Virus record (IMG/VR): IMGVR_UViG_3300035517_000038
Span: 1 to 64,000 of that record
DNA: 64,000 bases
Source: a virus
Taxonomy: Duplodnaviria; Caudoviricetes
Reading direction: 5' to 3' (one strand)
The notes under the pieces are model-generated. The model had not been told where the DNA came from. It saw only the letters and a list, made by a program, of their open reading frames with translations, and made no database searches. Below are positions 15,928 to 30,273 of the stretch, piece by piece. The number at the start of each line of letters is the position of its first letter. Positions within the stretch are counted from its first letter, which is position 1. A program made the position numbers and the translations under genes.

Positions 15928-16257
15928 ATGGAAGCAAGAAAAAACCACTATTGGACAAAAGAAGAAAATGACATCCTAGTTAAGGCTATCATTAAACACC
16001 CTCATAATAGGTCTGCAGCCTTTAGAGAGGCTAATACCAAAATGCCTAATCGTAGCTTTAAAAGTATAGAAGCTCACTGGTATTGCATAATAGGTAATCC
16101 TCAACATAAAGAGTATGTAGGTACTCTATTTATGACTATCTCTAATAATTCTACATTGCTTAATCGCACAGTAGTTAGAGAAAACAGCCTTGTTACTCCA
16201 GTAGGAGTACTAACAAGAGTATGGACTGCAATCAAGAATCTCTTAAACCTTCATTAA
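15928..16257 (+). CDS. Myb/SANT-like HTH protein
   Basis: WTKEENDIL...MPNRSFKSIEAHW; the track start (15889) overlaps the tRNA, so ATG 15928 is used. Confidence 0.6.
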   Translation: MEARKNHYWTKEENDILVKAIIKHPHNRSAAFREANTKMPNRSFKSIEAHWYCIIGNPQHKEYVGTLFMTISNNSTLLNRTVVRENSLVTPVGVLTRVWTAIKNLLNLH

Positions 16258-16258
16258 T

Positions 16259-16471
16259 ATGGTTATCTTTGAAATTATTCTTTATACCTTCATTTGCATT
16301 GCTATATTTGCATTTGGATGGTCAGTGCTCCTTATGTATATTAAGGATGTATTCGCTTTACATAAACACCCTAAAGCAGCTGCTATTATACAATTGTTTA
16401 TGTTGACAACTCTTATATCATCTATTGTTTATTCAATTTGTTACCATTATAATATACAACTATGGAATTAA
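16259..16471 (+). CDS. Small two-TM membrane protein
   Basis: Two hydrophobic stretches. Confidence 0.6.
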   Translation: MVIFEIILYTFICIAIFAFGWSVLLMYIKDVFALHKHPKAAAIIQLFMLTTLISSIVYSICYHYNIQLWN

Positions 16472-16620
16472 TAGAAAAAGTATTCTATGCTCTCGATGAT
16501 GTTATTCTACATTCTTTAGGCGGAATCCTCTTATATTTTTTATTTGTAGCCCGCTCAAATGATATGAAGAAACTCAGAAATACTCTTGATGAGCTGAATG
16601 AAAATTTGAAAAAATACTAA
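16462..16620 (+). CDS. Small membrane protein (52 aa)
   Basis: Hand-translated MELIEKVFYALDDVILHSLGGILLYFLFVARSNDMKKLRNTLDELNENLKKY. Confidence 0.55.
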   Translation: MELIEKVFYALDDVILHSLGGILLYFLFVARSNDMKKLRNTLDELNENLKKY

Positions 16621-16625
16621 AAATA

Positions 16626-16781
16626 ATGGAATTAACAGAAGAACAACTGGATGCTCTATATGAGTCCCTCTTCGATGCTGAGAAACTTGGAAACACCGCT
16701 GCTATAGAGAAAATCTATAGGCGGTGTCTCCAATACTCAAATGGTCATGCTCTAGCAGAGTTGGCTAAAGAACTTATGTAA
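16626..16781 (+). CDS. Small hypothetical protein (51 aa)
   Basis: Hand-translated MELTEEQLDALYESLFDAEKLG...ELAKELM. Confidence 0.55.
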   Translation: MELTEEQLDALYESLFDAEKLGNTAAIEKIYRRCLQYSNGHALAELAKELM

Positions 16782-16803
16782 TTATTAAACAACTATCAAA
16801 ATT

Positions 16804-17106
16804 ATGGAAGAAACAAAAAAGAAAATTAATTGGAAATCAGTATTGCTTGATGCGGGATTTTATTTGGTAATGATTCTCATTGGAGTTAATGTAGGAAGCT
16901 GGATAACCCGAAGTTATTATTCCAAACAACATGAACAAGATGTAGAACTTCTCAATCTCTATAATGATTACTATGAAAGTAGTGCTCAACTTATTGGGGA
17001 TTTCATAGACAGTAATGACACTCTTGAATGTTCACCAAATAATTGGAATAATTGTTATTCCGCTTTTAAAAGCTTATATGAATATCTAAATGACGAAGAA
17101 CTATGA
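16804..17106 (+). CDS. Membrane-anchored hypothetical protein
   Basis: N-terminal TM segment. Confidence 0.65.
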   Translation: MEETKKKINWKSVLLDAGFYLVMILIGVNVGSWITRSYYSKQHEQDVELLNLYNDYYESSAQLIGDFIDSNDTLECSPNNWNNCYSAFKSLYEYLNDEEL

Positions 17107-17270
17107 AAACAAGAAAAGTAACATCCTCAGGAATTATTGTTGAGTTGCAGGATAAAACTGTAACTACTATATATGGAAAACACAACATTTGCATGACTAT
17201 GTTCCCTAATAGAGCTGCCGCTGTTAAGGAATTTAACAAACACCGACAAAGTAATAGTCATATACTTTAA
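17103..17270 (+). CDS. Small hypothetical protein (55 aa)
   Basis: ATGA overlap with the upstream gene; MKTRKVTSSGIIVELQDK... Confidence 0.5.
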   Translation: MKTRKVTSSGIIVELQDKTVTTIYGKHNICMTMFPNRAAAVKEFNKHRQSNSHIL

Positions 17271-17294
17271 AAAATGTTAAAAGACATTGGAACA

Positions 17295-17326
17295 TTTGCT
17301 ATTTTCAAACTTTTTGCATACCTTTG
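17295..17326 (+). promoter_or_regulatory. Bacteroidetes sigmaA-type promoter of the tRNA cluster
   Basis: TTTG-N20-TACCTTTG, a perfect consensus. Confidence 0.8.
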
Positions 17327-17329
17327 TAA

Positions 17330-17420
17330 TGCGAAAGATGAATAACACGTGTTTTGTTAGATGTCGGTGATGAACATATGTCACTTTACTGTTGAGAGAA
17401 TAGGAAAGTGATTATTTTAT
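17330..17420 (+). ncRNA. Candidate small RNA in the tRNA-operon leader
   Basis: Contains TTTGTTAGATGT, antisense to ACATCTAACAA upstream of genes at 22435, 23789 and 26087, plus a 3' hairpin TCACTTT-A-CTGTT-GAGAG-AATAG-G-AAAGTGA. Confidence 0.5.
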
Positions 17421-17494
17421 GGTTCAGTAGCTCAGTTGGATAGAGCAACAGCCTTCTAAGCTGTGGGTCATGAGTTCGAGTCTCATCTGAATCA
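17421..17494 (+). tRNA. tRNA-Arg(TCT)
   Basis: Anticodon arm ACAGC-CTTCTAA-GCTGT; D-arm AGCTCAGTTGGATAGAGC; T-arm GAGTTCGAGTCTC. Confidence 0.95.
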
Positions 17495-17590
17495 CTATCT
17501 TAATTTGTGTGGATTTTTTGTTTTATTTTTGTTTCATTTTTGTTGTTTGTATATTCTTCAGTCTGTGAAGATAGAAGAATATTTTTATAT

Positions 17591-17675
17591 GCCACCATGG
17601 TGAAATAGGTAGACACGAAGGACTTAAAATCCTTTAACTATTGCAGTTGTGTGGGTTCAAGTCCCACTGGTGGTA
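17591..17675 (+). tRNA. tRNA-Leu(TAA)
   Basis: Anticodon arm AAGGA-CTTAAAA-TCCTT, long variable arm, GGTTCAAGTCC. Confidence 0.95.
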
Positions 17676-17682
17676 CTAATTT

Positions 17683-17756
17683 GGTCCTATAGCTCAGTTG
17701 GTTAGAGCACCTGACTCATAATCAGGAAGTCCTTGGTTCAAGCCCAAGTGGGACCA
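17683..17756 (+). tRNA. tRNA-CAT, most likely Ile2 (lysidine-modified, reads AUA)
   Basis: Anticodon arm CCTGA-CTCATAA-TCAGG. The acceptor stem has C4-G69/C5-G68 (TilS determinants) and there are no initiator features. Confidence 0.85.
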
Positions 17757-17877
17757 CTTAGTTGTTATACAATCGTTATTGACAAGTTAAAATCGAAACT
17801 GTAGCTTGGGAAAGTGAAAGTTAAAACCTGTGTCCATAAGAGTATAATCGTCTTATGTACACATTAAACTGGGTTTT

Positions 17878-17906
17878 GGGATTCTCTATATGAGAATCCC
17901 TTTTTT
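17878..17906 (+). terminator. Intrinsic terminator ending the tRNA operon
   Basis: GGGATTCTC-TATAT-GAGAATCCC followed by TTTTTT. Confidence 0.8.
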
Positions 17907-17939
17907 ATGAATTTACCTTTTAAACAAAATATATCTATT

Positions 17940-18344
17940 ATGAACAAGTTAAAGAACTGGGCATTAGCTACTATTGTAGCTGTTCCCTTAACATTTGCTG
18001 TCTGTGGTATTCATTATTACGTTACTCATGAAGATTCTGCTACACAAGAGTCAACTTATGAAGAAACTGTAGAAGAAGAACCAGAGATTATTGACCTCAC
18101 TGACATTTTTGAAAGTATTTTGTCAGATTCCTTGAATTATGATACTCGCTATTATAATTATATAGAAGAATACAAGACTGTTGCCCATCTTGCTAAATAT
18201 ATGGCAGAGGAACAAAATGATTCTAATATAAATCTGGAAGTGTATAATCATTTCTTTATTGCTTATGGAGAAGAACTTGATACTATTAAAGTTCGAGATT
18301 TGATTCTTTATCGTTGTTTTCTAGAAGCAAAATATGGAGAATGA
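17940..18344 (+). CDS. Membrane-anchored acidic hypothetical protein
   Basis: Start probably MNKLKNW (17940); TM helix followed by an acidic domain. Confidence 0.65.
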   Translation: MNKLKNWALATIVAVPLTFAVCGIHYYVTHEDSATQESTYEETVEEEPEIIDLTDIFESILSDSLNYDTRYYNYIEEYKTVAHLAKYMAEEQNDSNINLEVYNHFFIAYGEELDTIKVRDLILYRCFLEAKYGE

Positions 18345-18567
18345 TGCTATTTTGATTATTATTGGAATGTTAGTCATATTTACAGTATGGCTACATTTCA
18401 AATTTAATAGTGTTAATACTACTATTAAACTCATTAATTATAAACCTAGTCTTAAAAATAGACAACAATTACTAAAAGACTTGATTAAGTATAAAGTAGA
18501 ACTTTTATTCTTAGTAATGAGTATTTTAGTATTAATATTTGTCTTACTTTGGATGTTATTAGAATGA
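18334..18567 (+). CDS. Two-TM membrane protein
   Basis: Two hydrophobic segments. Confidence 0.6.
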   Translation: MENDAILIIIGMLVIFTVWLHFKFNSVNTTIKLINYKPSLKNRQQLLKDLIKYKVELLFLVMSILVLIFVLLWMLLE

Positions 18568-18815
18568 GACATAATTATACTAAAAAAGAAGATGAGAGAA
18601 TTATGGAAGTTATGTGTGAACATCCTAATTCTCAAACAAGAGCCTTATATTTACTCTCTATGGAACTAAATAGGTATCCTAGCTCTATTTACAATAGATT
18701 TAAAAATCATCTGGACAATCCTGAGAGTAAACATTATATGGGTTCTACATATCTAGCAATTGCTAGAAGGTGTGCTAACTTAGATAAACGAATTTTAGAA
18801 TCAAAGAAACTATGA
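18564..18815 (+). CDS. Myb/SANT-like HTH protein (paralog of 15928-16257)
   Basis: YTKKEDERI...HPNS..RA...NRYPSSIYNRF...NPESKHYMG aligns with the 15928 protein. Confidence 0.6.
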   Translation: MRHNYTKKEDERIMEVMCEHPNSQTRALYLLSMELNRYPSSIYNRFKNHLDNPESKHYMGSTYLAIARRCANLDKRILESKKL

Positions 18816-19087
18816 TTTACGATTTACAATATTCAGAAGGTTGCTCTTTTTCTACTACTATCAATGGTAAAGAATTAGTAGACTTTACAGAAACACCTGA
18901 AGGAAAAGCAGAATTAAAGAAGCTAATCTTAGCTCTAGTAGAGAAAGTAGACGTTGATGTAGCTGATTTACAAATGCTTTTTATGGGTGCTCTTACTCAA
19001 ATTGGTACTTATGAAGATGAGGGATATTGTGAGCAATGTGGTTCAAGCAATTTCTCTTATAAAGCTAAATTTGAAGTAGATGACTAG
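18812..19087 (+). CDS. Hypothetical protein
   Basis: 91 aa acidic, CEQCG motif. Confidence 0.65.
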   Translation: MIYDLQYSEGCSFSTTINGKELVDFTETPEGKAELKKLILALVEKVDVDVADLQMLFMGALTQIGTYEDEGYCEQCGSSNFSYKAKFEVDD

Positions 19088-20279
19088 AGACCAGGTAACT
19101 GCAGAATTATTATCTGTAGGTTACAGGGATTATATACTAGAACTACCCACAGGAATGGGTAAATCCAAACAAGCTATTGAATTAATGCGTAAGTATTTGA
19201 GAAATAGAGAGGATTTGAAAGTGCTTATCCTAGTCCCTAGGGTAGTTCTAGTTAATAATTGGAAAGATGAATTAGCTAAATGGTATAAAGATTGTAAAAT
19301 CAATATACAAATAGCTTGCTATAAGAGTATAGAGAAATACGCAGGTAATTGGGATATGGTAATATTTGATGAAGCTCATCATCTTACAGATAGATGTATG
19401 GAAGCTCTTGAATCATTTACCATATATCATAATATATTCCTGTCTGCTACTCTTACTAGAGATATGAAGCAAGCTATCCAAAATAGATGCCCTGGAATTT
19501 ATACTTATAGAGTATCTATGAAGAAAGCTATAGAATCTGAAGTTTTACCTGAACCTACAGTTTATCTTATGCCTTTATTCCTAAATACTACTAGAATGAC
19601 TGAAACCATTATTAAGAATCCTAGAGGTAAAACTACTAAAGAGGTTACTTATGATGGTAGATGGGAAGCTACTAGAAATAAACATATTAAATATATTATT
19701 CATTGTACACAAAGCCAAAAGCATGAACATTTATGCTCTATGGTAGAATGGTACAAGAAGCAGTATATGACAACAAGGAATGAAGGTCTTAAACATTTAT
19801 GGCTTAGAGCCAGCTTGGATAGATTACAGTGGTTATCTAATATAAAAGTGAAATACAGTATTGATATTAACAATATGTGTATTAACAAGAAAATTAGAAG
19901 CCTAGTATTCTGTTCATCCATCGACCAATCTAACTTATTTCCTAAAACACACCCTATTAATAGTAAGAATAGTGTTAAGGATAATCAAGTGTACTTGGAT
20001 AACTTCAATAAAGGAGTTATCAATAATGTGACAGCTGTTAACTCTCTTAATGAAGGAGTTAATTTGGTTAATTGTCAAGTAGGAGTATTCAATACTATTA
20101 ATTCTTCTGAAATTATGACTATTCAGAAGATTGGTAGAATATTGAGACATCCTAATCCTATATTGATAATACCATACTTTAGCTCTACTAGAGAAGAAGA
20201 GCTTGTAGATAAGATGCTGGAACATTATAATAAGGATAATGTAAAGAAAATAATGAATATCTCACAAATTAAATTATGA
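19080..20279 (+). CDS. SF2 (DEAH) helicase
   Basis: LPTGMGKS (motif I), DEAHH (II), LSAT (III), LNEGVNL (V), QKIGRILR (VI). Confidence 0.9.
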   Translation: MTRDQVTAELLSVGYRDYILELPTGMGKSKQAIELMRKYLRNREDLKVLILVPRVVLVNNWKDELAKWYKDCKINIQIACYKSIEKYAGNWDMVIFDEAHHLTDRCMEALESFTIYHNIFLSATLTRDMKQAIQNRCPGIYTYRVSMKKAIESEVLPEPTVYLMPLFLNTTRMTETIIKNPRGKTTKEVTYDGRWEATRNKHIKYIIHCTQSQKHEHLCSMVEWYKKQYMTTRNEGLKHLWLRASLDRLQWLSNIKVKYSIDINNMCINKKIRSLVFCSSIDQSNLFPKTHPINSKNSVKDNQVYLDNFNKGVINNVTAVNSLNEGVNLVNCQVGVFNTINSSEIMTIQKIGRILRHPNPILIIPYFSSTREEELVDKMLEHYNKDNVKKIMNISQIKL

Positions 20280-20899
20280 TTAAACGAGTAACAATTGACA
20301 TCGACCTAATCACTAAGAAAGGATACAAAATTGATGACTATTTTGCTCTATTAGCTATGTACTATGGAGCTGAAATCAATTCTGACACCTATAAGCGCAT
20401 TACTCAAGAAGGGTATCTAGATTTTGATGCCTTAGATGAAGAATTGCCTATAGGAGCCAGGATTAATGACAATGGTAAAATTATGCTAGAAGATGTAATT
20501 CTAGACAGTGAAATCAAAGAAACTAAAGACACTAATAATGGTGTTGTAGACAGGTTCTCTTGGCTTGCTGACCAACTTAGAGCATTATATCCAGCAGGTA
20601 AGAAGCCTGGTACATCTTTCCAATGGAGAGATTCTACAGCTATTATTGCTAAGCGATTAAAGGCTTTGGTTGCTTCTTATAATTGTGAATTTACAGATGA
20701 GGAGGCTATTGAAGCTACTAAGAGGTATGTAGCATCATTTAATGGTAATTATCAATATATGCAGCTATTGAAGTATTTCATTAGCAAGAAAGTTATTATT
20801 GATGGTGCTGTTGAACCTAGCTCTCAATTGCTCTCTTATATTGAAAATGCTAATGATGTAGATTCTAGTAATACTACATGGACAGATACTCTTGTATAA
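20276..20899 (+). CDS. Conserved replication-region protein (possible initiator/helicase loader)
   Basis: LRALYPAGKKPG...YMQLLKYFI; located upstream of DnaB. Confidence 0.55.
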   Translation: MIKRVTIDIDLITKKGYKIDDYFALLAMYYGAEINSDTYKRITQEGYLDFDALDEELPIGARINDNGKIMLEDVILDSEIKETKDTNNGVVDRFSWLADQLRALYPAGKKPGTSFQWRDSTAIIAKRLKALVASYNCEFTDEEAIEATKRYVASFNGNYQYMQLLKYFISKKVIIDGAVEPSSQLLSYIENANDVDSSNTTWTDTLV

Positions 20900-21296
20900 T
20901 ATGAGATATAGAAAAAATGTACTAAAACATCCATTATTCAATAGATTTAAGGAGATGATGGTCGATATTAAGACATTTTCTCCTTATATTATAAAATTCG
21001 GTTTTCTTAAAGTAATAGAAGATGGCTCACTAAAATGGGAAATAGATATTTACCCTAATAAAAAGAAATTTAATAAAATGCCATCTAATATAGAGATAAT
21101 AAAGAATTTCACAGGTATTATTATTCCTCCTGATTATGTTTTAGAATATGATTCTGAGTATCCAAATATAAATCCTAATGTAGGCCATTTGGTATTTCAG
21201 CATGAAAATGATAAAACACAGAGAATGTATCTATTCTATTACCCTAGAACTGAATATACGAAATTTCACTTAATATGGGCATTAGAGAAAGAATAG
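20892..21296 (+). CDS. Hypothetical AT-rich protein
   Basis: 134 aa, overlaps both neighbours. Confidence 0.55.
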   Translation: MYNMRYRKNVLKHPLFNRFKEMMVDIKTFSPYIIKFGFLKVIEDGSLKWEIDIYPNKKKFNKMPSNIEIIKNFTGIIIPPDYVLEYDSEYPNINPNVGHLVFQHENDKTQRMYLFYYPRTEYTKFHLIWALEKE

Positions 21297-22429
21297 TAGA
21301 TAATCTACATGAGCGAAGAAATAGAATATTAGAAGGGAAGGTCAACTGTATTCCTCTACCATTTAAAAGATTTAAAGAAGAATTTCCAGGAATTGAGAAA
21401 GGTGTGTACTACCTGATTAGTGGTGGAACTAAATCAGCGAAGACTCAGATTACCAATTATTTATTTGTGTACAATACAATATTGTATATGTATTACAATC
21501 CTGGAGTTATTAAAGCCAAAATCAATTATTATCCTTTAGAAGAGACAGCAGAATCTATTACTCTTAGATTTATGGCATTTTTGCTAAATCACCTATTTAA
21601 GGTCAGGATTAGTCCTGTTGACCTTAAATCTACAAATAATGATAAACCAGTTGATTCTGCTATACTGGAGTTATTAAATAGACCACAATTCATAGAGATT
21701 ATGAATTTATATGAGTCTGTAGTAACTTTCTATGATGATAAAAATCCTTCAGGTATATATAAGAATTTCAAGAGATATGCTGAGTCACACGGTAAAACAT
21801 ATTATAAGACCTTTAAAACCAAAGATGATTTTGGAAATGAGGTAGAAAGGAAAATATTTGATTATTATGTAGCAGATGACCCTGAAGAGTTCTATTTTAT
21901 TATAGTTGACCATGTAAGCCTACTTGATTCTGAGAAGCATGGAGGTAGGTATCTAGACCTTCGAGAGACTATTTTAAAGCTCTCTGAATATATGATTATA
22001 GCTAGAAATAGGTATAATTATACTCCTGTAGTAGTACAGCAGCAATCTATTGAGACTAGTAATCTTGAAGCCTTTAAACAGGATAAAATTAGACCAACTA
22101 TGGCTGGTTTAGGAGATTCCAAGTACACAGGTAGAGATTGCTCGGTTATGCTGGGTATTACTAATCCTTATAGTTTTGAAAAACCTGAATACCTTAACTA
22201 TGATATTACTACACTCAAAGACAAATTTAGATGTCTAGAGGTAGTATTAAATAGAAATGGTAGAGCTAATGGTTTGTGTCCCCTGCTCTTTGATGGTGCT
22301 ATTAATGCATTTAAAGAGCTTCCTAAGCCTAATGACCCCAAGATTATAGAAATATACAATGGAGTCAAACAGAATAAAAATCTATTCTTTATTACATTTA
22401 AACGAATTTTAAAACCAAAAAACATCTAA
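21275..22429 (+). CDS. dnaB: DnaB-like replicative helicase
   Basis: Walker A-like SGGTKSAKT, Walker B IIVDHVSLL, VVVQQQ, PTMAGLGDS, LNRNG. Confidence 0.8.
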   Translation: MGIRERIVDNLHERRNRILEGKVNCIPLPFKRFKEEFPGIEKGVYYLISGGTKSAKTQITNYLFVYNTILYMYYNPGVIKAKINYYPLEETAESITLRFMAFLLNHLFKVRISPVDLKSTNNDKPVDSAILELLNRPQFIEIMNLYESVVTFYDDKNPSGIYKNFKRYAESHGKTYYKTFKTKDDFGNEVERKIFDYYVADDPEEFYFIIVDHVSLLDSEKHGGRYLDLRETILKLSEYMIIARNRYNYTPVVVQQQSIETSNLEAFKQDKIRPTMAGLGDSKYTGRDCSVMLGITNPYSFEKPEYLNYDITTLKDKFRCLEVVLNRNGRANGLCPLLFDGAINAFKELPKPNDPKIIEIYNGVKQNKNLFFITFKRILKPKNI

Positions 22430-22434
22430 CAATT

Positions 22435-23115
22435 ATGGCAAATGTATGCTTAATCATGGGTAAATCAGGTACTGGTAAATCTACTTCGATTAAAACCCTC
22501 GACCCTAAAGAAACTGTAATCTTTAATATTTTGCGTAAGCGTCTACCTTTTAAAGGTTCTAAATCTGTATATAATGAGCAGAATAAGAATCTGTTCTTGC
22601 TGGATGATTATGCGCAAATTGTAAATTTCCTCACAGCTATTGACAAAAAGGCTACTCATGTAAAGAATGTAGTTATTGATGATGCTACTTACATTATGCG
22701 TAAGGAATATTTCAAAACTGCAAAGCTTACTGGTTATGGTAAATATACAGATATGGCTGCACATTTTCAAAATGTGATTAATACAGCAGAATCTATGAGA
22801 GATGATGTAAATGTATTTCTCATTATGCACTGCGATGAAGTTATCTCTGATAATACTATTGTAGGTTATAAGCCTTCAACTGTAGGTAAATTGATTGACA
22901 GTTCTTATAATCCTGTAGAAGTAGTTCCTATTGTGCTTTTCTCTATGGTAAAGTTTAACGATAAAGGTGAAGCTACTTATGGTTTTGCTACTCATAAGTT
23001 CATGGATGGTCAAATTGAAATTCCTGCTAAATCTCCAGCAGATATGTTCGATGAAGATTTTATTCCTAATGACCTTGGTACAGTAGTAAAAGCTATGAAT
23101 GAGTATTATGGTTAA
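22435..23115 (+). CDS. AAA_24 / Sak4-like P-loop ATPase
   Basis: GKSGTGKST, VVIDD, C-terminal AKSP..MF...IPNDL. Confidence 0.85.
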   Translation: MANVCLIMGKSGTGKSTSIKTLDPKETVIFNILRKRLPFKGSKSVYNEQNKNLFLLDDYAQIVNFLTAIDKKATHVKNVVIDDATYIMRKEYFKTAKLTGYGKYTDMAAHFQNVINTAESMRDDVNVFLIMHCDEVISDNTIVGYKPSTVGKLIDSSYNPVEVVPIVLFSMVKFNDKGEATYGFATHKFMDGQIEIPAKSPADMFDEDFIPNDLGTVVKAMNEYYG

Positions 23116-23182
23116 ATAATCTTAAATATTTTAATATCCCGACTAAACTAACTAAATTTGTAATCCATTAATTTAAAACATT

Positions 23183-23734
23183 ATGAAAGAACTTAACAAA
23201 TCTGACAAAGTAGCTATCAAACGTATTGCTGGTATTCTCTATAACACTTGTGTTAAGAAGATGGAGAAAATTCAAAGTAAGATTGATGAACTGCAAAAAG
23301 AACTTGCAGAGCAACAAGAAGCTATGAATAAAATGGATACTGTTCCTTATTTGACCAATAGCACTTATAAAGCATTTGACCTTGTAGAACGTAAAGAGAC
23401 TCTTTCTCGCGATAATAATGGTAAAGAAGTTAAGGTTGTTACTTATGAGTTTAAGTATCCTGATACTATTTACCCTGCTATGGAAGCTCCTACTCTCACA
23501 ATTGATGAAGCTGAGGCAATGTCTCAAGATTTCCTTACTGGAGAAATTGTAGAAGAAGTAAATCAAGTAGAAGTAGCTCAAAAGGCAATTGAAGATGCAC
23601 AAGATGTGCAATTGCAAGCTGAACACTTTGCTCCTATGGCTCAAGTAGAGACTCCTGATGAAGCTACTGAAGTTCCTACTGTAGGTGAGGATACAACAGC
23701 TTCTACTGAAGAATCTTATAACCCCTTTATGTAA
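23183..23734 (+). CDS. Hypothetical protein, coiled coil with acidic tail
   Basis: 183 aa ORF, ends YNPFM. Confidence 0.7.
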   Translation: MKELNKSDKVAIKRIAGILYNTCVKKMEKIQSKIDELQKELAEQQEAMNKMDTVPYLTNSTYKAFDLVERKETLSRDNNGKEVKVVTYEFKYPDTIYPAMEAPTLTIDEAEAMSQDFLTGEIVEEVNQVEVAQKAIEDAQDVQLQAEHFAPMAQVETPDEATEVPTVGEDTTASTEESYNPFM

Positions 23735-23788
23735 TTTATTAATTTAACTATAAACATCTAACAATAAACAATTTAAAACTATATTATT

Positions 23789-24739
23789 ATGGCAATCTCA
23801 ACTGGTAAAAAGTCAACTGTAAATTCTTTCTCTTTCAAGCGTTATATTGGTATTGCACCTTGTAAAGTTCTTGCTGTTAATCCCAACAAGGCTAAGATGG
23901 AAGAACTCTTTGGTTCTGCTCCTGAAAATGAGCCTGTTTATGTAGGTAAGGATGAAAAGCTGAATGTTCCCACTGCACGTATTACATTTGTAGTACAGCC
24001 TATTGCTGATTTTGAAGTAGCCCCTATTTCTATTAGTTTCTTTCTTACTAAGTCTGCAATGATTTCTCAAGCAGGTAAATGTAAGGTTATTGACAAATAT
24101 GGTCGCACAGCTTGGGTGACTAAGGAAGAATTTACTGCAAAAGCTATTCCTATGTATTCTAATGGTCCTGCTCAATTGGATAAGGACTATAAGCCCTGCT
24201 ATATTGGTCAAGAAGAATTAGTAAAGTTCCTCATTAGCTATATGTGGATTGAGCCTATCAAGCTTTGGAATAACAATGAACGTAAGTTCTATGAAAACCC
24301 CAATAAGGATGCTTGCGAATGTTCTCTTGACAATATTGACAAGTATTTCAATGGTGACATTTCTGAGATTACAAAGTGTCTTGAAATTCAACCTGAGAAT
24401 ATTGTAGACATTTGCTTTGGTGTTCGTACTACTGAAGATGGTAAGCAATATCAAGCTTTCTTCAAGGAAGAATTTACTCGTGGAGGTGCTCGCTCTCATA
24501 AGAATATTGAACGTGCTCTTCAACAGGCTAAAGAACGTGGAGCATATGCTACTACTGAATATGCTACCACCGACTTTAAGGAGTATTCTTTCCAAGTAAC
24601 TGAATTTAAGCCTCAGGCAGAGAATGAGGTTCTTCCTGATTTTGCTCCTGCTGCTTCTGCTGTACCTGATTTTAGCACTCCCACAGCATCGGAGGACAAT
24701 CTCCCTTTTAACAATGCCTCTGAAGAAACTCCGTGGTAA
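23789..24739 (+). CDS. Probable single-stranded DNA-binding protein
   Basis: Lies between the AAA ATPase and primase; acidic flexible tail ending DNLPF...ETPW. Confidence 0.6.
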   Translation: MAISTGKKSTVNSFSFKRYIGIAPCKVLAVNPNKAKMEELFGSAPENEPVYVGKDEKLNVPTARITFVVQPIADFEVAPISISFFLTKSAMISQAGKCKVIDKYGRTAWVTKEEFTAKAIPMYSNGPAQLDKDYKPCYIGQEELVKFLISYMWIEPIKLWNNNERKFYENPNKDACECSLDNIDKYFNGDISEITKCLEIQPENIVDICFGVRTTEDGKQYQAFFKEEFTRGGARSHKNIERALQQAKERGAYATTEYATTDFKEYSFQVTEFKPQAENEVLPDFAPAASAVPDFSTPTASEDNLPFNNASEETPW

Positions 24740-24742
24740 TAT

Positions 24743-25726
24743 ATGATTTCAAGAGGTCGGTCATCTATAATGTTGGCTGATGTCTTAAAAGTTACTACAG
24801 AGGCTGAAATTGCTAACTATTACTTGGGGATTACCACTATACCCTGTGTAATAGTTAGCCCTCTAAGAGAGGAATCTAAACCATCATTTAGTATATATTC
24901 TAATGATGGGGTTAAAGTTCATTTCTTAGATTTTGCTACTAGAGAACGAGGTTCTATATTTGATTTATTATGTAAAATGTATCATATGAACTTTGCTGAT
25001 TTAATACCTATGATTTATAAAGATTTTAAATATAGGACTAAATCAGGAGTTGCTGGTGCCAAATCTGTTTTTAAAAGCATAGTTAACAAAGAGTGGACAG
25101 ATGTTAAAGTATCTGTTAGAGAATGGCAACAACATGATATAGAATACTGGGAATCATATGGAATATCTCTTGAGTGGCTCAAATATGCAAATGTCTATCC
25201 TATCTCTCATAAGATTATATTCAAAGGAAGTAATAAGTATTGTTTCAAAGCTGAAAAATATGCTTATGCTTTCGTTGAATTTAAAGAAGGAAAGACAACA
25301 TTAAAAATCTATCAACCTTTCAGTAAAACTTTCAAATGGTGTAATAAACATGATAAATCTGTAATCAGTTTATGGACTAAAGTACCTAGAGAAGCAGACA
25401 AAATTTGTATTTGTGCTTCATTAAAGGATGCTCTCTGTCTTTGGTCTAATACTGGCATACCTGCTATAGCTATACAAGGAGAAGCTATGAGTATGAGCAA
25501 AACAGCAATACAGAGTTTAAAGAATAGATACAAGAAAATTTATATCTTACTAGACAATGATACTGCTGGTTTGGAAAATGCTAAAAAGTTAGCTGAAGAA
25601 ACTGGATTTACAAATGTTGTATTACCTCCTTTTGAAGGTGGAAAAGACATTAGCGATTTATACAAAGTGTCTAACAAACAAACATTTCTAACAACTTTAA
25701 AACAATTATTTTATGGAAACTCGTAA
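24743..25726 (+). CDS. DNA primase (TOPRIM)
   Basis: N-terminal SPLREESKPSF..F.DF..G.IFD; TOPRIM motifs SLKDAL, ILLDNDTAG, KDISD. Confidence 0.85.
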   Translation: MISRGRSSIMLADVLKVTTEAEIANYYLGITTIPCVIVSPLREESKPSFSIYSNDGVKVHFLDFATRERGSIFDLLCKMYHMNFADLIPMIYKDFKYRTKSGVAGAKSVFKSIVNKEWTDVKVSVREWQQHDIEYWESYGISLEWLKYANVYPISHKIIFKGSNKYCFKAEKYAYAFVEFKEGKTTLKIYQPFSKTFKWCNKHDKSVISLWTKVPREADKICICASLKDALCLWSNTGIPAIAIQGEAMSMSKTAIQSLKNRYKKIYILLDNDTAGLENAKKLAEETGFTNVVLPPFEGGKDISDLYKVSNKQTFLTTLKQLFYGNS

Positions 25727-26021
25727 ACAAATTTATGCTCACATTGTTAATAACAATTTGCAAGAAGAAGTCAAAAAGGCTTATGGTCGTAATTATACTC
25801 AAGTAGGAAATGAGGACCTTTTGCGTATCTATGACCAACATATTATGAACAGAGCTTCTGAAACAAAGGCAAAGAAGGAAAATGTCAGTAAAAAGGATTG
25901 TAAATGCAATAGTGACCTTTTTAAAGTCCAATCCGCTCTTGTTGCTCTTATTTCTGAGCTTGTTATTGCGCGCAGGCTCAAGGCTGCTGATGCAGAAGCT
26001 ATTATGAATCTTTTGCAATAA
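25713..26021 (+). CDS. Hypothetical protein
   Basis: 102 aa ORF followed by a terminator. Confidence 0.7.
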   Translation: METRKQIYAHIVNNNLQEEVKKAYGRNYTQVGNEDLLRIYDQHIMNRASETKAKKENVSKKDCKCNSDLFKVQSALVALISELVIARRLKAADAEAIMNLLQ

Positions 26022-26028
26022 ATCATAA

Positions 26029-26063
26029 AGGCAGGGGATTAAATTCTCCTGCCTATTTAATTT
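26029..26063 (+). terminator. Intrinsic terminator
   Basis: AGGCAGGGGA...TCTCCTGCCT followed by ATTTAATTT. Confidence 0.6.
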
Positions 26064-26086
26064 CTAACATCTAACAAACCACTATT

Positions 26087-28279
26087 ATGATTATAAAACA
26101 AGAAACTGCAAACGAAGCACAAGTAATTGGTGACATTGAGAATAACAAAGTTGGTATTGACCGTGCTAACATTGATTTTATTGCTACTCTGTTAACTTCT
26201 AATCTTTATTCTAACCCATTTGAGTCTTTCTTGCGTGAAACCATTTCTAATGCATATGATGCTCAAGTAGAGGCTGGTAATCAAGATAAGAATATAATCC
26301 TGCTAATCCAAGACCATAAAGAAAATTCTAATGAACTGCGTATCTCTATTAGAGATTATGGTACTGGTATATCTCCTGAGAGATTTGACACTATTTATAA
26401 TAAGATTGGTAGCTCTACTAAGAGAGAATCTAATGATTATATTGGTGGTTTGGGTATTGGTAAATTTGCAGGATTATCTTTATCAGATGTAGTAGAAATC
26501 AATAGTTATTACAATGGTACATTGTATAGTTACTTGATGTATAAGAATGGTACAGGTATTCAAATTGATAAAATATCAGAAGAACCTACAGAAGGTGAGA
26601 ATGGTGTTGAAGTATCTGTAGTAATTCCTTATAATAGATACTCATATTCAGAGAACAACAAGAAAGCACAAGCTATTTATAATATGTGCTATTTTGAAAA
26701 TCTTGTTGCTATCTGTACTTCAGAGAAATTTCAATATTTCTCAGCTAAAGACTTTAATGAAAGGACTATTGTAGTAAAAGACAATTATAGTTTCTGTGAA
26801 TTACAATCAGATTGCATAGCACTTAAAGTAGGCAAAGTCTTGTATCCTACTCAAACTTATAATATGGATACTCCTATAAGTAAAGTTGCTATCAATATTC
26901 CTATTGGTTCTGTCACAGTAACTCCTAATAGAGAAAGTCTTATTTATACTGATGAAACATCAAAATTTGTAAATAATAAGTATGAAGCTGCTGTAAATGA
27001 TTTATGTAAAGATATAGCAAATGCTTATAAGAAAGAACTTACAAACTTGTATGAGCTTCAAAAGTTCTTTATAGACCAAGTTTTATATTATAATCCTTGT
27101 ACAGGTGAAATATCGAACAAACAAGTATCTAGGAAATATTATGAAAGAGTTGTAGATAATCTTGGTCTTAAAGATGAGGCTATAAAATTCCTCAGAGGAG
27201 GTTGGATGAATGATTTCGCTATTCCTATGTTGTATGTAATGCGTTATATTAAACTTGGGGATATTTGGAGTATGCCTAAAGGCAGTTATGCTATTCCTTG
27301 CTTCTTTACTAAGTGGCACACTACTTTTAATAGAATATTAATCTTAGATACTGATAAAATAAGTATCAGAACTAAAGCTTGGGCTAATGACCACTATAAC
27401 CTTACTAATACCGTAGTAATGCATATTGATGATGCAAGAGCTTATTTAAAGGCTGCTACTAAAACTCTAATAAGAAAGTATGGATATTCTGCAAGTATCA
27501 TAAGAGCTTACATCAAAGACTTTATTAAATACAATAAAAATCTCTATATCCTAAAAGAGTCAGATATTCCTGAAGATTTTAAAGTCACCAGGTCAGTATC
27601 AATAGCTAAAACTATTAAAACAAATGAAAATGATATTACGGTAGATGAATATGCGGGGAATAGTTATACCAGAACTAATTTAAGACTCTTTAAAAGAAAC
27701 CGTGCTAAAGATACAATTATATATGCTACAAGGTCTAAAGATATGCCTGAATTATTTTTAGCACACTCTAAAATATTTTATCCTAGTTCAGAACATCATT
27801 TAGTTTTTTGTGCTATCTCTAAAGATACTATCAATATTGTCCAAGACTGGAAAAATTGGATTTCTTTTGAGGAATTTATAAAGACTCCTAATAAATATAT
27901 CTCTAGAGTAATGGCAGCTACTGTAATTAGAGCACAACAATTACCTACCTATGCAGAAGCTATATTGAGTGATGAAGTTCGTAGGAAATTAGTATTAAGA
28001 CGTACTTTCCTTAGTAACAATTCTGAAGTTCTGCCTACCGCTCTCAAGGAATATTATACAGAAAGAAAATGGATAGATACTGAAGCAATTGCTTATTATT
28101 GGCTATCTGATGCTATACTGGAGTATATGAAGGCTACTGGTAAAGTAGCTAATGAGGGTCATAAGCTTCTCCAAGCTATTGCTATTGACAGCTTGCCTAA
28201 AGAAACTCTTGTAAAATTACCTGCTTATCTAATGCTTAAGAAAACTAGCAACGAAACTCTTAAAACTATTGTAAAATGA
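26087..28279 (+). CDS. rIIA: rIIA-like protein (GHKL ATPase N-terminus)
   Basis: LYSN...LRETISNAYDA, IRDYGTGIS, STKRESNDYIGGLGIGK; followed by rIIB. Confidence 0.85.
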   Translation: MIIKQETANEAQVIGDIENNKVGIDRANIDFIATLLTSNLYSNPFESFLRETISNAYDAQVEAGNQDKNIILLIQDHKENSNELRISIRDYGTGISPERFDTIYNKIGSSTKRESNDYIGGLGIGKFAGLSLSDVVEINSYYNGTLYSYLMYKNGTGIQIDKISEEPTEGENGVEVSVVIPYNRYSYSENNKKAQAIYNMCYFENLVAICTSEKFQYFSAKDFNERTIVVKDNYSFCELQSDCIALKVGKVLYPTQTYNMDTPISKVAINIPIGSVTVTPNRESLIYTDETSKFVNNKYEAAVNDLCKDIANAYKKELTNLYELQKFFIDQVLYYNPCTGEISNKQVSRKYYERVVDNLGLKDEAIKFLRGGWMNDFAIPMLYVMRYIKLGDIWSMPKGSYAIPCFFTKWHTTFNRILILDTDKISIRTKAWANDHYNLTNTVVMHIDDARAYLKAATKTLIRKYGYSASIIRAYIKDFIKYNKNLYILKESDIPEDFKVTRSVSIAKTIKTNENDITVDEYAGNSYTRTNLRLFKRNRAKDTIIYATRSKDMPELFLAHSKIFYPSSEHHLVFCAISKDTINIVQDWKNWISFEEFIKTPNKYISRVMAATVIRAQQLPTYAEAILSDEVRRKLVLRRTFLSNNSEVLPTALKEYYTERKWIDTEAIAYYWLSDAILEYMKATGKVANEGHKLLQAIAIDSLPKETLVKLPAYLMLKKTSNETLKTIVK

Positions 28280-29376
28280 AAATATTCAGACTAAAGAACA
28301 ATCTTATTATTAACTTTACAAATGGTACTTCTTACAGGAGTACAGATTGTACAGACAAGTTTTTTGCTTCACTAAAAGGAAGAACTGAGCAAGAGATTAA
28401 AGATATTGTTCAGATAGATAAATTTAGTGAACAGGAGATTATCTCAAGGCTCAAGGATTCTAAAATCCTTGAGCAAAGAGGTATGTCTATTATTATGCCT
28501 TCTGTATCTAGTGTAACTCTTCCTATGGATTTGGTTACCAAGATTCTTACAGAGGAGTTCTCAAATGGTAATGTTCAAAAGTATATTAACTTCTGGAAAC
28601 TTGTATCTCTTAATCCTGATGACCGAGTAAGAGCTAATATTTATTGGTTTCTTAAAAGATGGAATGTTGAAATTACTAACGGTGGTCTTTGTGTAGTATA
28701 TAGAAATGCTAATATCAAGACTCGTGGTAAAATCAATACTGATTTTGCTAAATGGATTATTGAGCAGTATTATGACATTAAGTATAATAAGAAAGAAAAT
28801 CCTGCTAATTATTTTGTAAATTCGCTAAGTTTTAATAACTTTGCAGAAACTTACGAGATTACAGATGACCCTGAAGATGAAAATCTTGCTTCATTGTACT
28901 ATGATATTGTCAATAATAAAGCTGATGTAGATACTTATACAGATGCTCATTCAGGTACTACTACTATTAAAATTGGAGAACCTGTACGTATTCCTAGAGA
29001 GGATTGTGATTCCAATCAAGAGAACTCTTGTAGTACAGGTCTTCATGTAGGAGGTAAAGGCTGGCTTAAACAAAACTATTTTGGTTATGTAGGCTTAGAG
29101 TGCTTGGTTAATCCTGCTAATATTGTAGCAGTTCCTACTATTGATGACTATGGTAAACTCAGATGCTGTGAGTATTATCCTGTAGGTATCATTGAGTATG
29201 ATGAGGATGGTGAAATTGTCGATAGAGCTTACTCTGTAGACTATGAGCTTGAAGTTCTCAAGGATTCTCTGTATGACGGAGTAATCAATAATGAAGATGG
29301 TAATCAATTTATCATTGAAACTAATTATATTTCTAGAGAAGATATTTATAATTCTTATACTAAACAAATTGAATAA
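28276..29376 (+). CDS. rIIB: rIIB-like protein
   Basis: FWKLVSLNPD, CSTGLHVG and VNPANIVAVP..DYGKLRCCEY match the T4 rIIB signature. Confidence 0.85.
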   Translation: MKIFRLKNNLIINFTNGTSYRSTDCTDKFFASLKGRTEQEIKDIVQIDKFSEQEIISRLKDSKILEQRGMSIIMPSVSSVTLPMDLVTKILTEEFSNGNVQKYINFWKLVSLNPDDRVRANIYWFLKRWNVEITNGGLCVVYRNANIKTRGKINTDFAKWIIEQYYDIKYNKKENPANYFVNSLSFNNFAETYEITDDPEDENLASLYYDIVNNKADVDTYTDAHSGTTTIKIGEPVRIPREDCDSNQENSCSTGLHVGGKGWLKQNYFGYVGLECLVNPANIVAVPTIDDYGKLRCCEYYPVGIIEYDEDGEIVDRAYSVDYELEVLKDSLYDGVINNEDGNQFIIETNYISREDIYNSYTKQIE

Positions 29377-29378
29377 TT

Positions 29379-29834
29379 ATGAAGAAAACTGTTGTTTCCG
29401 TAACTTCTAACAATCTTAATGATGTGCTCAAAACTCTCAGTGAAGCATTTGGCGTTGAAATTGGTATATTACCTCCTCCTGACTTTGGTCACGATGTTTT
29501 GGCTACTGCCCATGATTTTGACTACTATCATGAGTGTGTTGCTAATAAAGTTGGTATTAAGTCTTCTAATTTGAGGAATATCTTTGTTAAGATTGCTCCT
29601 CATTATATTGAAGGTGTAAAGCAATTCTATTATTGGGAAATTGCTTTGGATATGGATAATCATTATAAAGACCATATCCTTAATTCAAAGGAATTATGGA
29701 TGATTAATCCTCTGCGTCATACACCATATAAGATTGGTGATAGGGAAAATATTAAACAGATGTATAAATTTATTCCCCTCTTCCGTAGTAAGGAAGAATG
29801 TCAAAAAGCTATTGAAATTGTGTGTGGAGAATAA
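29379..29834 (+). CDS. Hypothetical protein
   Basis: 151 aa, C-terminal FRSKEECQKAIE. Confidence 0.65.
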   Translation: MKKTVVSVTSNNLNDVLKTLSEAFGVEIGILPPPDFGHDVLATAHDFDYYHECVANKVGIKSSNLRNIFVKIAPHYIEGVKQFYYWEIALDMDNHYKDHILNSKELWMINPLRHTPYKIGDRENIKQMYKFIPLFRSKEECQKAIEIVCGE

Positions 29835-30273
29835 GAAAATAAAAAATGCAACCTCTACTACAGTTGATGGTGTAGAATTTAAGTCCAAAATGGAAGCCAG
29901 GGTTTATCAAATCCTGGTTTCCGAAGGGCTTAATCCTGAATATGAATCAAAAACCATTACTTTATGGGAAGGGTTTACTCCTACAATACCTTATTATAAA
30001 AAAACTAAAGGCTCTTTAAACTATCTAGAGAAAGCTAAAGTTAGAAATATTACATATACACCTGACTTTTATTTCAACTATAATGGTTTAAATGTCTATA
30101 TAGAAGTTAAAGGTTTTGTTAATGATGTATTCCCTGTAAAAAAGAAAATGTTTAGGAAATACTTAGAAGAGAAAGAATCTCCTGCTATGGTATTTGAAAT
30201 ATATACATTAACACAGTTGAAGGATGCACTATTAAAGATTAAATCTTATGGCAGCACTCCTAGCAAGAATTGA
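29821..30273 (+). CDS. PD-(D/E)xK endonuclease (DUF1064/endonuclease I-like resolvase)
   Basis: VDGVEFKSKMEA, YTPDF, IEVKG; start uncertain. Confidence 0.75.
   Translation, partial: CVENKKIKNATSTTVDGVEFKSKMEARVYQILVSEGLNPEYESKTITLWEGFTPTIPYYKKTKGSLNYLEKAKVRNITYTPDFYFNYNGLNVYIEVKGFVNDVFPVKKKMFRKYLEEKESPAMVFEIYTLTQLKDALLKIKSYGSTPSKN

Follow-up and report, generated by a model that had tools for sequence, protein, structure and literature searches.

The 5′ leader of a tRNA-Arg/Leu/Met operon in a crAss-like phage is a candidate small base-pairing RNA, a reading to which we give, on the evidence of the sequence, a probability of about 0.5. It is put first because two phages carry different words in this leader, and these words are joined only by a common property, namely the complementarity of the same leader segment to the start of the same gene, rIIA.

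The operon is located on a crAss-like contig of 104,923 bp with a G+C content of 33%, the first 64 kb of which constitute the window, i.e., the whole stretch of DNA that was analyzed. An exact direct repeat of 127 bp is present at both termini (genome positions 1-127 and 104797-104923), which indicates a complete genome of 104,796 bp that was either assembled circularly or is terminally redundant. Judged from its gene order and its relatives, the phage belongs to the Crassvirales, and the nearest named record is the Steigviridae phage cr128_1. Crassvirales are the most abundant human gut phages; to our knowledge, no trans-acting regulatory RNA is known from them, and little is understood of how their genes are timed to be expressed early, in the middle or late.

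The + strand block from 12.5 to 55 kb contains small early genes, four tRNAs and the replication block. In the latter, the genes are arranged in the order DnaB-like helicase (21275), Sak4-like ATPase (22435), two unknowns, primase (24743), a 102-aa unknown, rIIA (26087) and rIIB (28276). The first-pass annotation of this DNA had called the products of ORFs 22435 and 26087 an AAA ATPase and rIIA, and both calls hold, the former being a Sak4-like/AAA_24 ATPase. The product of ORF 23789 had been named SSB. This name is unverified, since an SSB signal was absent in PHROGs, Pfam and PDB sequences, and the product is referred to here as a 316-aa protein whose family is not recognisable.

Complementarity between the tRNA operon leader and gene starts

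A pattern search placed a Bacteroidota-type promoter of the tRNA operon at 17295-17326 on the + strand, with a -33 TTTG and a -7 TACCTTTG separated by a 20-nt spacer. The consensus for the primary sigma factor of Bacteroidota consists of a -33 TTTG and a -7 TAnnTTTG, ∼19-21 nt apart, and besides TTTG-N20-TACCTTTG the search found only one other full match between genes in the genome. The transcript is expected to start near 17332. The candidate regulatory RNA would thus correspond to the ∼89-nt 5′ leader of the operon (17332-17420, + strand), with a presumed RNase P cut at 17420/17421. On the same strand, the leader is followed by tRNA-Arg(UCU) (17421-17495), tRNA-Leu(UAA) and tRNA-Met(CAU) (together 17591-17757) and the intrinsic terminator that closes the operon (17878-17900). 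Both the host-type promoter and the leader up to the tRNA at 17421, written there as tRNA-Arg(TCT), are as the first-pass annotation had described them.

Within the leader, the seed TTTGTTAGATGT (17353-17364, + strand, ∼+22 to +33 of the leader) is complementary to a 12-mer of start regions. It is unpaired in the centroid fold of the leader and predicted to be largely unpaired overall. The hairpin that had been noticed behind the seed is present at 17380-17412 on the + strand (17379-17413 in the match to the covariance model R1, see below) and is composed of a 7-bp outer stem, an internal loop, a 5-bp inner stem and a GAGAG loop. In the predicted fold it ends 8 nt upstream of the 5′ end of tRNA-Arg, and a terminator scan did not classify it as terminator-like. 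Because the hairpin stops at this distance from the tRNA, the 3′ end of the leader would be set by RNase P.

Several further features were observed in this part of the operon. A palindrome of 10 bp without mismatch (17344-17353), centred on CACGTG, adjoins the seed; the genome has only three CACGTG sites, two of which lie in intergenic control regions (17344-17353 and 12528). A GTCACTT segment of the leader can pair either with an upstream GGTGAT or with a downstream AAGTGAT, resulting in mutually exclusive hairpins (17366-17371, 17380-17386 and 17406-17412), and in relatives these two alternative hairpins are separate elements. A mini-ORF of ten codons (17338-17370) starts ∼6 nt past the expected transcript start, and its AGA codon, which lies inside the seed, is read by the tRNA-Arg(UCU) encoded just 3′. 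A leader-peptide attenuator was rejected, since the mini-ORF has no counterpart in the aligned leader of the relative L003 and the hairpin does not resemble a terminator. The spacer between tRNA-Arg and tRNA-Leu (17496-17548) contains 58% T and 5% C, and is thereby a mirror image of the A/C-rich start regions; locus L114 also has a T/G-rich spacer of this kind.

The 11-mer ACATCTAACAA occurs exactly four times in the window, at + 22422, + 23754, + 26067 and - 17354, the last position being the inverted copy in the leader, and exactly four times in the whole genome. This count on both strands agrees with the first-pass annotation, in which no other exact copies had been found by eye, and the coordinates given there for the leader word and for the three sense copies before 22435, 23789 and 26087 are correct. 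The three + copies are identical over 12 nt (AACATCTAACAA), and 2, 24 and 9 nt separate them from the respective start codons. Copy 1 (22421-22432) covers -14 to -3 of the start of the Sak4-like ATPase (ATG 22435); it overlaps the DnaB-like gene and includes the stop codon of that gene. For the 316-aa protein (ATG 23789), copy 2 (23753-23764) spans -36 to -25, and for rIIA (ATG 26087), copy 3 together with its extension (26066-26082) spans -21 to -5. At the rIIA site, 15 of 16 nt pair with the leader when 17349-17352 are added to the seed, as had been proposed. Directly 5′ of the rIIA start region lies a terminator hairpin (26029-26054, + strand), and the same layout is found in L003.

In addition to the exact copies, two degenerate copies with the core TCTAACAA at 25670 and 25687 are located on the + strand at 25667-25694, before the ATG at 25713 of the 102-aa protein. 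The first of these (25667) is wobble-compatible with the seed, in line with its earlier description. Overlapping partial copies are present at 26059-26077 and at 25667-25694. The core was identified nine times on the + strand, with five of the nine at most 45 nt upstream of four neighbouring starts. One seed is therefore complementary to three exact targets of 11-12 nt and to the 9-nt core, all at most 45 nt upstream of starts and all within a 4-kb block. A copy that matches the motif in 10 of 11 positions (29403-29413, + strand) covers +25 to +35 of the gene after rIIB (start at 29379), and is the only one-mismatch copy on the + strand within the + gene block. The target start regions are unstructured by prediction.

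The first-pass annotation had estimated ∼0.1 chance copies of the 11-mer per window. The rarity of the motif is borne out in that only 0.03 copies per window are expected in shuffled sequence and that its occurrence in three start regions is unusual, but the shuffle figure overstates it, because 177 different 11-mers, mostly in coding sequence, reach at least four copies in this AT-rich genome. ACATCTAACAA is the only one among 4239 start-region 11-mers that is common to three start regions. The complement of the 11-mer was obtained in 17 of 20000 composition-matched shuffled leaders. With dinucleotide-preserving shuffles, at least three start regions were matched by words of at least 11 nt in ∼0.1% of the trials, so that the three matched by the leader compare to 0.08 expected (P 0.001); like the other P values, this one is weakened by hidden multiple testing, since the motif was found by eye. 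The rIIA start region of the window was matched by shuffled leaders (at least 11 nt) in 0.33% of the trials.

The 11-bp AU-rich duplex has a weak to modest energy of -12.3 kcal/mol, which becomes -16.7 kcal/mol with the rIIA extension. Interaction energies between leader and start regions had been suggested as a check in the first-pass annotation, and here the claim gains nothing: for the whole leader against the phage start regions, the energies are no better than those of shuffled leaders. A wobble-tolerant seed pattern was uninformative, with 61 matches genome-wide.

The orthologous leader of L003 and the leaders of distant relatives

L003 is the closest long relative of the window phage, with a Sak4-like ATPase that is 77% identical, and it is the only relative with an orthologous leader. 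The loci L004 and L153, which originate from a second sample, are identical to L003 where they overlap and are counted with it as one lineage. The tRNA-Arg(UCU) operon of L003 has a homologous promoter (TTTG..TATATTTG) that is colinear with the window promoter, and the two leaders align without gaps from the -33 box to a common TGTCGG. In this alignment, the pairing segment of the window corresponds to positions 23-38 of the first 41 leader nucleotides. In L003, leader positions 22-32 are the exact reverse complement, over 11 nt, of the rIIA ortholog around its start codon, from -9 to +2. By-hand extension of the computed duplex to leader positions 17-36 results in a match of 19 out of 20, including one G·U wobble; the single mismatched position is the start codon G. 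The rIIA orthologs of the two phages are 40% identical over 730 aa and have the same terminator-spacer-ATG layout. Eight of the 14 leader positions common to both pairing segments differ between the window and L003, the target words differ as well, and, counted from the start codon, the pairing is displaced by 5 nt. As in the window leader, the L003 seed is unpaired in the predicted centroid fold.

The L003 leader word is the longest word antisense to the rIIA start region in the 20.7-kb locus, and shuffled L003 leaders reach 11 nt on this region in 0.47% of the trials (P 0.0047). A second 11-nt word of the L003 leader matches the gene that follows rIIB, in its start region at -26 to -16; two start regions are thus matched, compared to 0.15 expected (P 0.015). 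The window ortholog of this gene carries the 10/11 motif copy at +25 described above. The joint probability that both orthologous leaders match the rIIA ortholog is ∼1.6e-5, or ∼4e-4 if any shared gene is allowed. Co-variation of seed and targets among relatives, which had been named as a check in the first-pass annotation, had a positive outcome in the one lineage covered, L003, where the complementarity to rIIA is kept with different letters. Going by the alignment, this is a complementarity that was re-created on a homologous leader segment in a single lineage, and not pair-by-pair covariation. A 9-nt word antisense to the rIIA start region was also observed in non-coding sequence at L003:3395-3403, immediately in front of a further GNRA hairpin.

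When IMG/VR, metagenome contigs and GTDB genomes were searched with proteins as seeds, the best reachable genome had 80% ATPase identity; ATPases matching that of the window were identical (P0001, P0002), 87% identical (P0003) or 77% identical (P0004-P0016). The 12-mer is kept in none of the ∼140 related loci, and a search with a 17-nt leader word gave chance matches only, in unrelated coding DNA. Over 57 distinct tRNA leaders of relatives, complementarity to start regions shows no general excess (8 observed versus 6.4 expected). Leaders of the L011/L014 type have a small hairpin and a GNRA hairpin in common with the window leader, and no multi-target complementarity to start regions was detected in them. 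In rIIA-centred loci of distant relatives, the longest word in eight leader/rIIA pairs is 8 nt, and in the next rIIA lineage (G003) the tRNA leaders are not orthologous to that of the window. No paper on crAss small RNAs or on GNRA-capped hairpins was found in the literature.

Two observations on these relatives are added. Before the tRNA leaders of a different crAss lineage, the block GGTAATTTGATTnTTTTTAGGTAA is conserved (L011:4010-4060, L014:703-750, L016, L035, L082, L085, L103 and L107); it is a candidate promoter outside the TTTG/TAnnTTTG pattern. In the four DNA runs X1-X4, which are labelled as freshwater metagenome, fragmented contigs are 85-99% identical to positions 16001-30000 of the window; no RNA run was among the sequencing runs listed for this stretch. 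Therefore, close relatives are not confined to gut samples, from which most of the related IMG/VR loci come.

Proposed function and rival explanations

In the proposed mechanism, host RNA polymerase would start at the Bacteroidota-type promoter, and the RNase P cut at the tRNA 5′ end would free an RNA of ∼89 nt, the 3′ end of which would be capped by the hairpin. The unpaired segment at ∼+18 to +33 would pair with the single-stranded, Shine-Dalgarno-less start region of rIIA. Conserved targets would be rIIA and the gene that follows rIIB, and in the window phage they would be joined by the Sak4-like ATPase, the 316-aa protein and probably the 102-aa protein. Pairing would most likely block ribosome loading once transcription by the host polymerase (middle transcription) runs. 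In the model crAss-like phage phi14:2, host-type promoters are middle or late and are often located before tRNA genes (bioRxiv 10.1101/2020.03.07.982082). By analogy, the leader RNA would come after the earliest transcripts and could shut off their translation. We infer in this way that the leader accumulates and pairs in the cell, and also the sign, direction and timing of its effect.

The interpretation of the leader as an antisense RNA had already been put forward in the first-pass annotation. It is strengthened by the promoter, the unpaired seed, the 3′ hairpin, the unstructured targets and the rIIA complementarity of L003, but the related leaders of distant relatives are without such complementarity. 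Two further points count against a leader-derived RNA: copy 2, at 25-36 nt upstream of the start, is placed at the edge of the ribosome footprint, and 5′ leaders are usually short-lived.

The main rival, which is judged unlikely and yet deserves a real share of the probability, is coincidence helped by complementary base composition, as the leader contains 23% G and 9% C and the start regions 41% A. The 12-mer would then be only a sense-strand element of start regions, either an A/C-rich landing pad for ribosomes that was copied, or a handle for an RNA-binding repressor of translation, and the leader would be an ordinary pre-tRNA leader. Its antisense copy and the L003 match would both result from the chance meeting of U/G-rich leaders with A/C-rich starts. 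Indeed, A/C-rich words (AAACAA, TTAAAAC and CAA repeats) are general in the start regions of the window and of L003, some 11-nt complement in some start region is present in 18% of the shuffled leaders, and 35 places in the genome match at least three start regions through different AT-rich words; the unremarkable duplex energies and the missing enrichment over the 57 leaders point in the same direction. What coincidence leaves poorly explained is that one seed has three targets (P ∼0.001) and that both orthologous leaders fall on the rIIA ortholog, with the low joint probability given above. The same complementarity would also be expected if the effect ran in reverse, with abundant early mRNAs binding the pre-tRNA leader and tuning tRNA maturation or leader decay, or if the leader titrated a factor off the mRNAs. 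The seed adjoins the structured part of the leader that is conserved in relatives, which would suit such a role; nothing in the sequence requires it, however, and targets at start regions are the classical site of translational repression, so that a sponge or reverse effect is regarded as improbable.

The alternative named in the first-pass annotation, a protein-binding site present in both orientations, would correspond to an operator for a phage protein at +20 of the tRNA promoter and before the replication and rII genes. It would account for the two orientations, and the leader copy is adjoined by the perfect 10-bp palindrome. In L003, however, leader and rIIA are matched through a word other than that of the window, and the second target through yet another; such different words in two phages argue for pairing of nucleic acids and not for the site of one protein. 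Moreover, the four copies are identical over 11-12 bp with no likeness beyond, which is atypical of protein sites, copy 1 is located in coding sequence, no promoter is visible at the + copies, and the motif is absent from all other relatives. A DNA site of this kind is considered highly unlikely. The copies could also have no present function and be left over from a short intergenic cassette that was locally duplicated, inverted or recombined. The motif is lineage-specific and its partial copies at 26059-26077 and 25667-25694 overlap, as relics might do, but the similarity ends sharply at 11-16 nt and the independent complementarity in L003 would be left unexplained, and little probability is assigned to this origin. 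Other explanations were rejected: a promoter or MotA-like box, given the variable distance to the starts (2 to 25 nt) and the terminator that precedes copy 3; replication iterons, given that the copies are scattered across 9 kb; an invertible segment flanked by the inverted repeats, since its products would be nonsensical; and a boxA-like antitermination element, which agrees with the consensus in 7 of 11 positions and would be on the wrong strand in the leader.

The preferred reading, a base-pairing RNA derived from the leader, has partial counterparts in known systems. 3′ETS-leuZ, the 3′ trailer of the E. coli glyW-cysT-leuZ tRNA operon, is likewise a by-product of tRNA-operon processing that regulates through base pairing; it sponges other small RNAs, whereas the phage 5′ leader would pair directly with mRNA start regions. 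The kind of regulon and the timing logic would be those of T4 RegA, a protein repressor with a loose sequence preference that stops translation of early genes, including rIIB and replication genes, at their initiation regions. In the phage studied here, the recogniser would instead be an RNA with exact complementarity. In Bacteroides, a member of a phylum without Hfq, small RNAs of the GibS/MasB type also pair through an unpaired seed with Shine-Dalgarno-less start regions. Unlike the phage leader, they are stand-alone chromosomal genes with their own terminators, and are neither phage-encoded nor tRNA leaders. Phage-encoded small RNAs, some of them co-transcribed with tRNAs, comprise the small stable RNAs of the T4 tRNA cluster, which have no known targets, and lambda OOP and P22 Sar, which are cis-antisense to one gene; in contrast to OOP and Sar, the phage leader would act in trans on several genes.

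More speculatively, and with rather low confidence, a fixed scaffold consisting of the host-type promoter, the GNRA-capped hairpin and the RNase P-defined 3′ end might be combined with a freely evolving 5′ segment that co-evolves with the starts of rIIA and other early genes. Such leaders would form a new class of programmable regulators of the clade. They would be a side product of tRNA maturation and, in hosts without Hfq, would take as RNAs the part that the protein RegA has in T4; the hairpin would be the dock of an RNA-binding protein. If the leader acts as proposed, phage tRNA operons do more than supply tRNAs, and an RNA-based analogue of the T4 translational shut-off of rII and replication genes would exist. 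Seed and compensatory mutations would, in addition, make it easy to test, in a phylum that departs from the E. coli model in translation initiation as well as in RNA regulation.

A family of GNRA-capped hairpins in crAss-like genomes

Hairpins of a common two-tier layout were identified in the window and in its relatives, in which a 1x1 internal loop separates an outer stem (6-10 bp) from a 4-bp inner stem that is capped by a GNRA loop. The inner stem is usually GUCU/AGAU with a G·U pair, and the loop is mostly GUGA. Among 18 distinct copies, 94% of the cells pair, compared to 54% in shuffles and 38-47% in slid controls, and all 12 pairs vary on both sides (covariation); these figures are inflated, because the seed copies were picked by folding. 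A covariance model of the two-tier hairpin (R1), which was built in this analysis, gave 27 matches in relatives, all on the transcribed strand. Thirteen of the 27 abut a tRNA 5′ end, and the remaining matches are located after ORFs, often with U tracts. In a plain pattern scan, the hairpin was found 62 times on the + strand and 4 times on the - strand. About half of the copies lie 4-9 nt upstream of tRNA 5′ ends. Since the hairpin is placed a few nt before RNase P sites, the RNA upstream of the cut would keep a structured 3′ end, which fits a stable leader.

In the tRNA operon of the window, a canonical copy with a GUCU/AGAU stem and a GUGA loop is located before tRNA-Leu (17549-17584, + strand, R1 41 bits) and ends 6-8 nt before the tRNA. 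A third, weaker hairpin lies in the operon trailer (17792-17827, + strand, R1 16.8 bits, E 0.31). The leader hairpin is a weak match to the model (R1 13.4 bits, E 2.5) and, by its structure, appears to be a diverged relative of the GNRA-capped family. No match for the leader or the hairpins was obtained in Rfam at E up to 1. The boxB hairpins of lambdoid nut sites are also short, have a GNRA-type loop and are repeated on the transcribed strand of early regions. The likeness concerns the hairpin only; unlike boxB, the crAss hairpin is two-tier, has a conserved G·U pair and a 1x1 loop and is often situated 4-9 nt before tRNAs, and neither an N-like protein nor a boxA partner was identified for it.

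Independently of how the leader is read, the family of GNRA-capped hairpins provides a new and well-supported RNA motif with which crAss-like genomes can be annotated. Further copies were identified on the transcribed strand of L003 (2452-2487, 2888-2923, 3345-3380 and 3415-3450), of L040 (8 copies) and of many other loci, and the motif is nearly absent from one bacterial genome that was checked. Strong matches to the hairpin model were observed on contigs C13, C48 and C395 of G002, a metagenome-assembled genome labelled Clostridium sp. that is the record of L144. These small contigs are probably crAss-like phage contigs that were binned into a bacterial genome.
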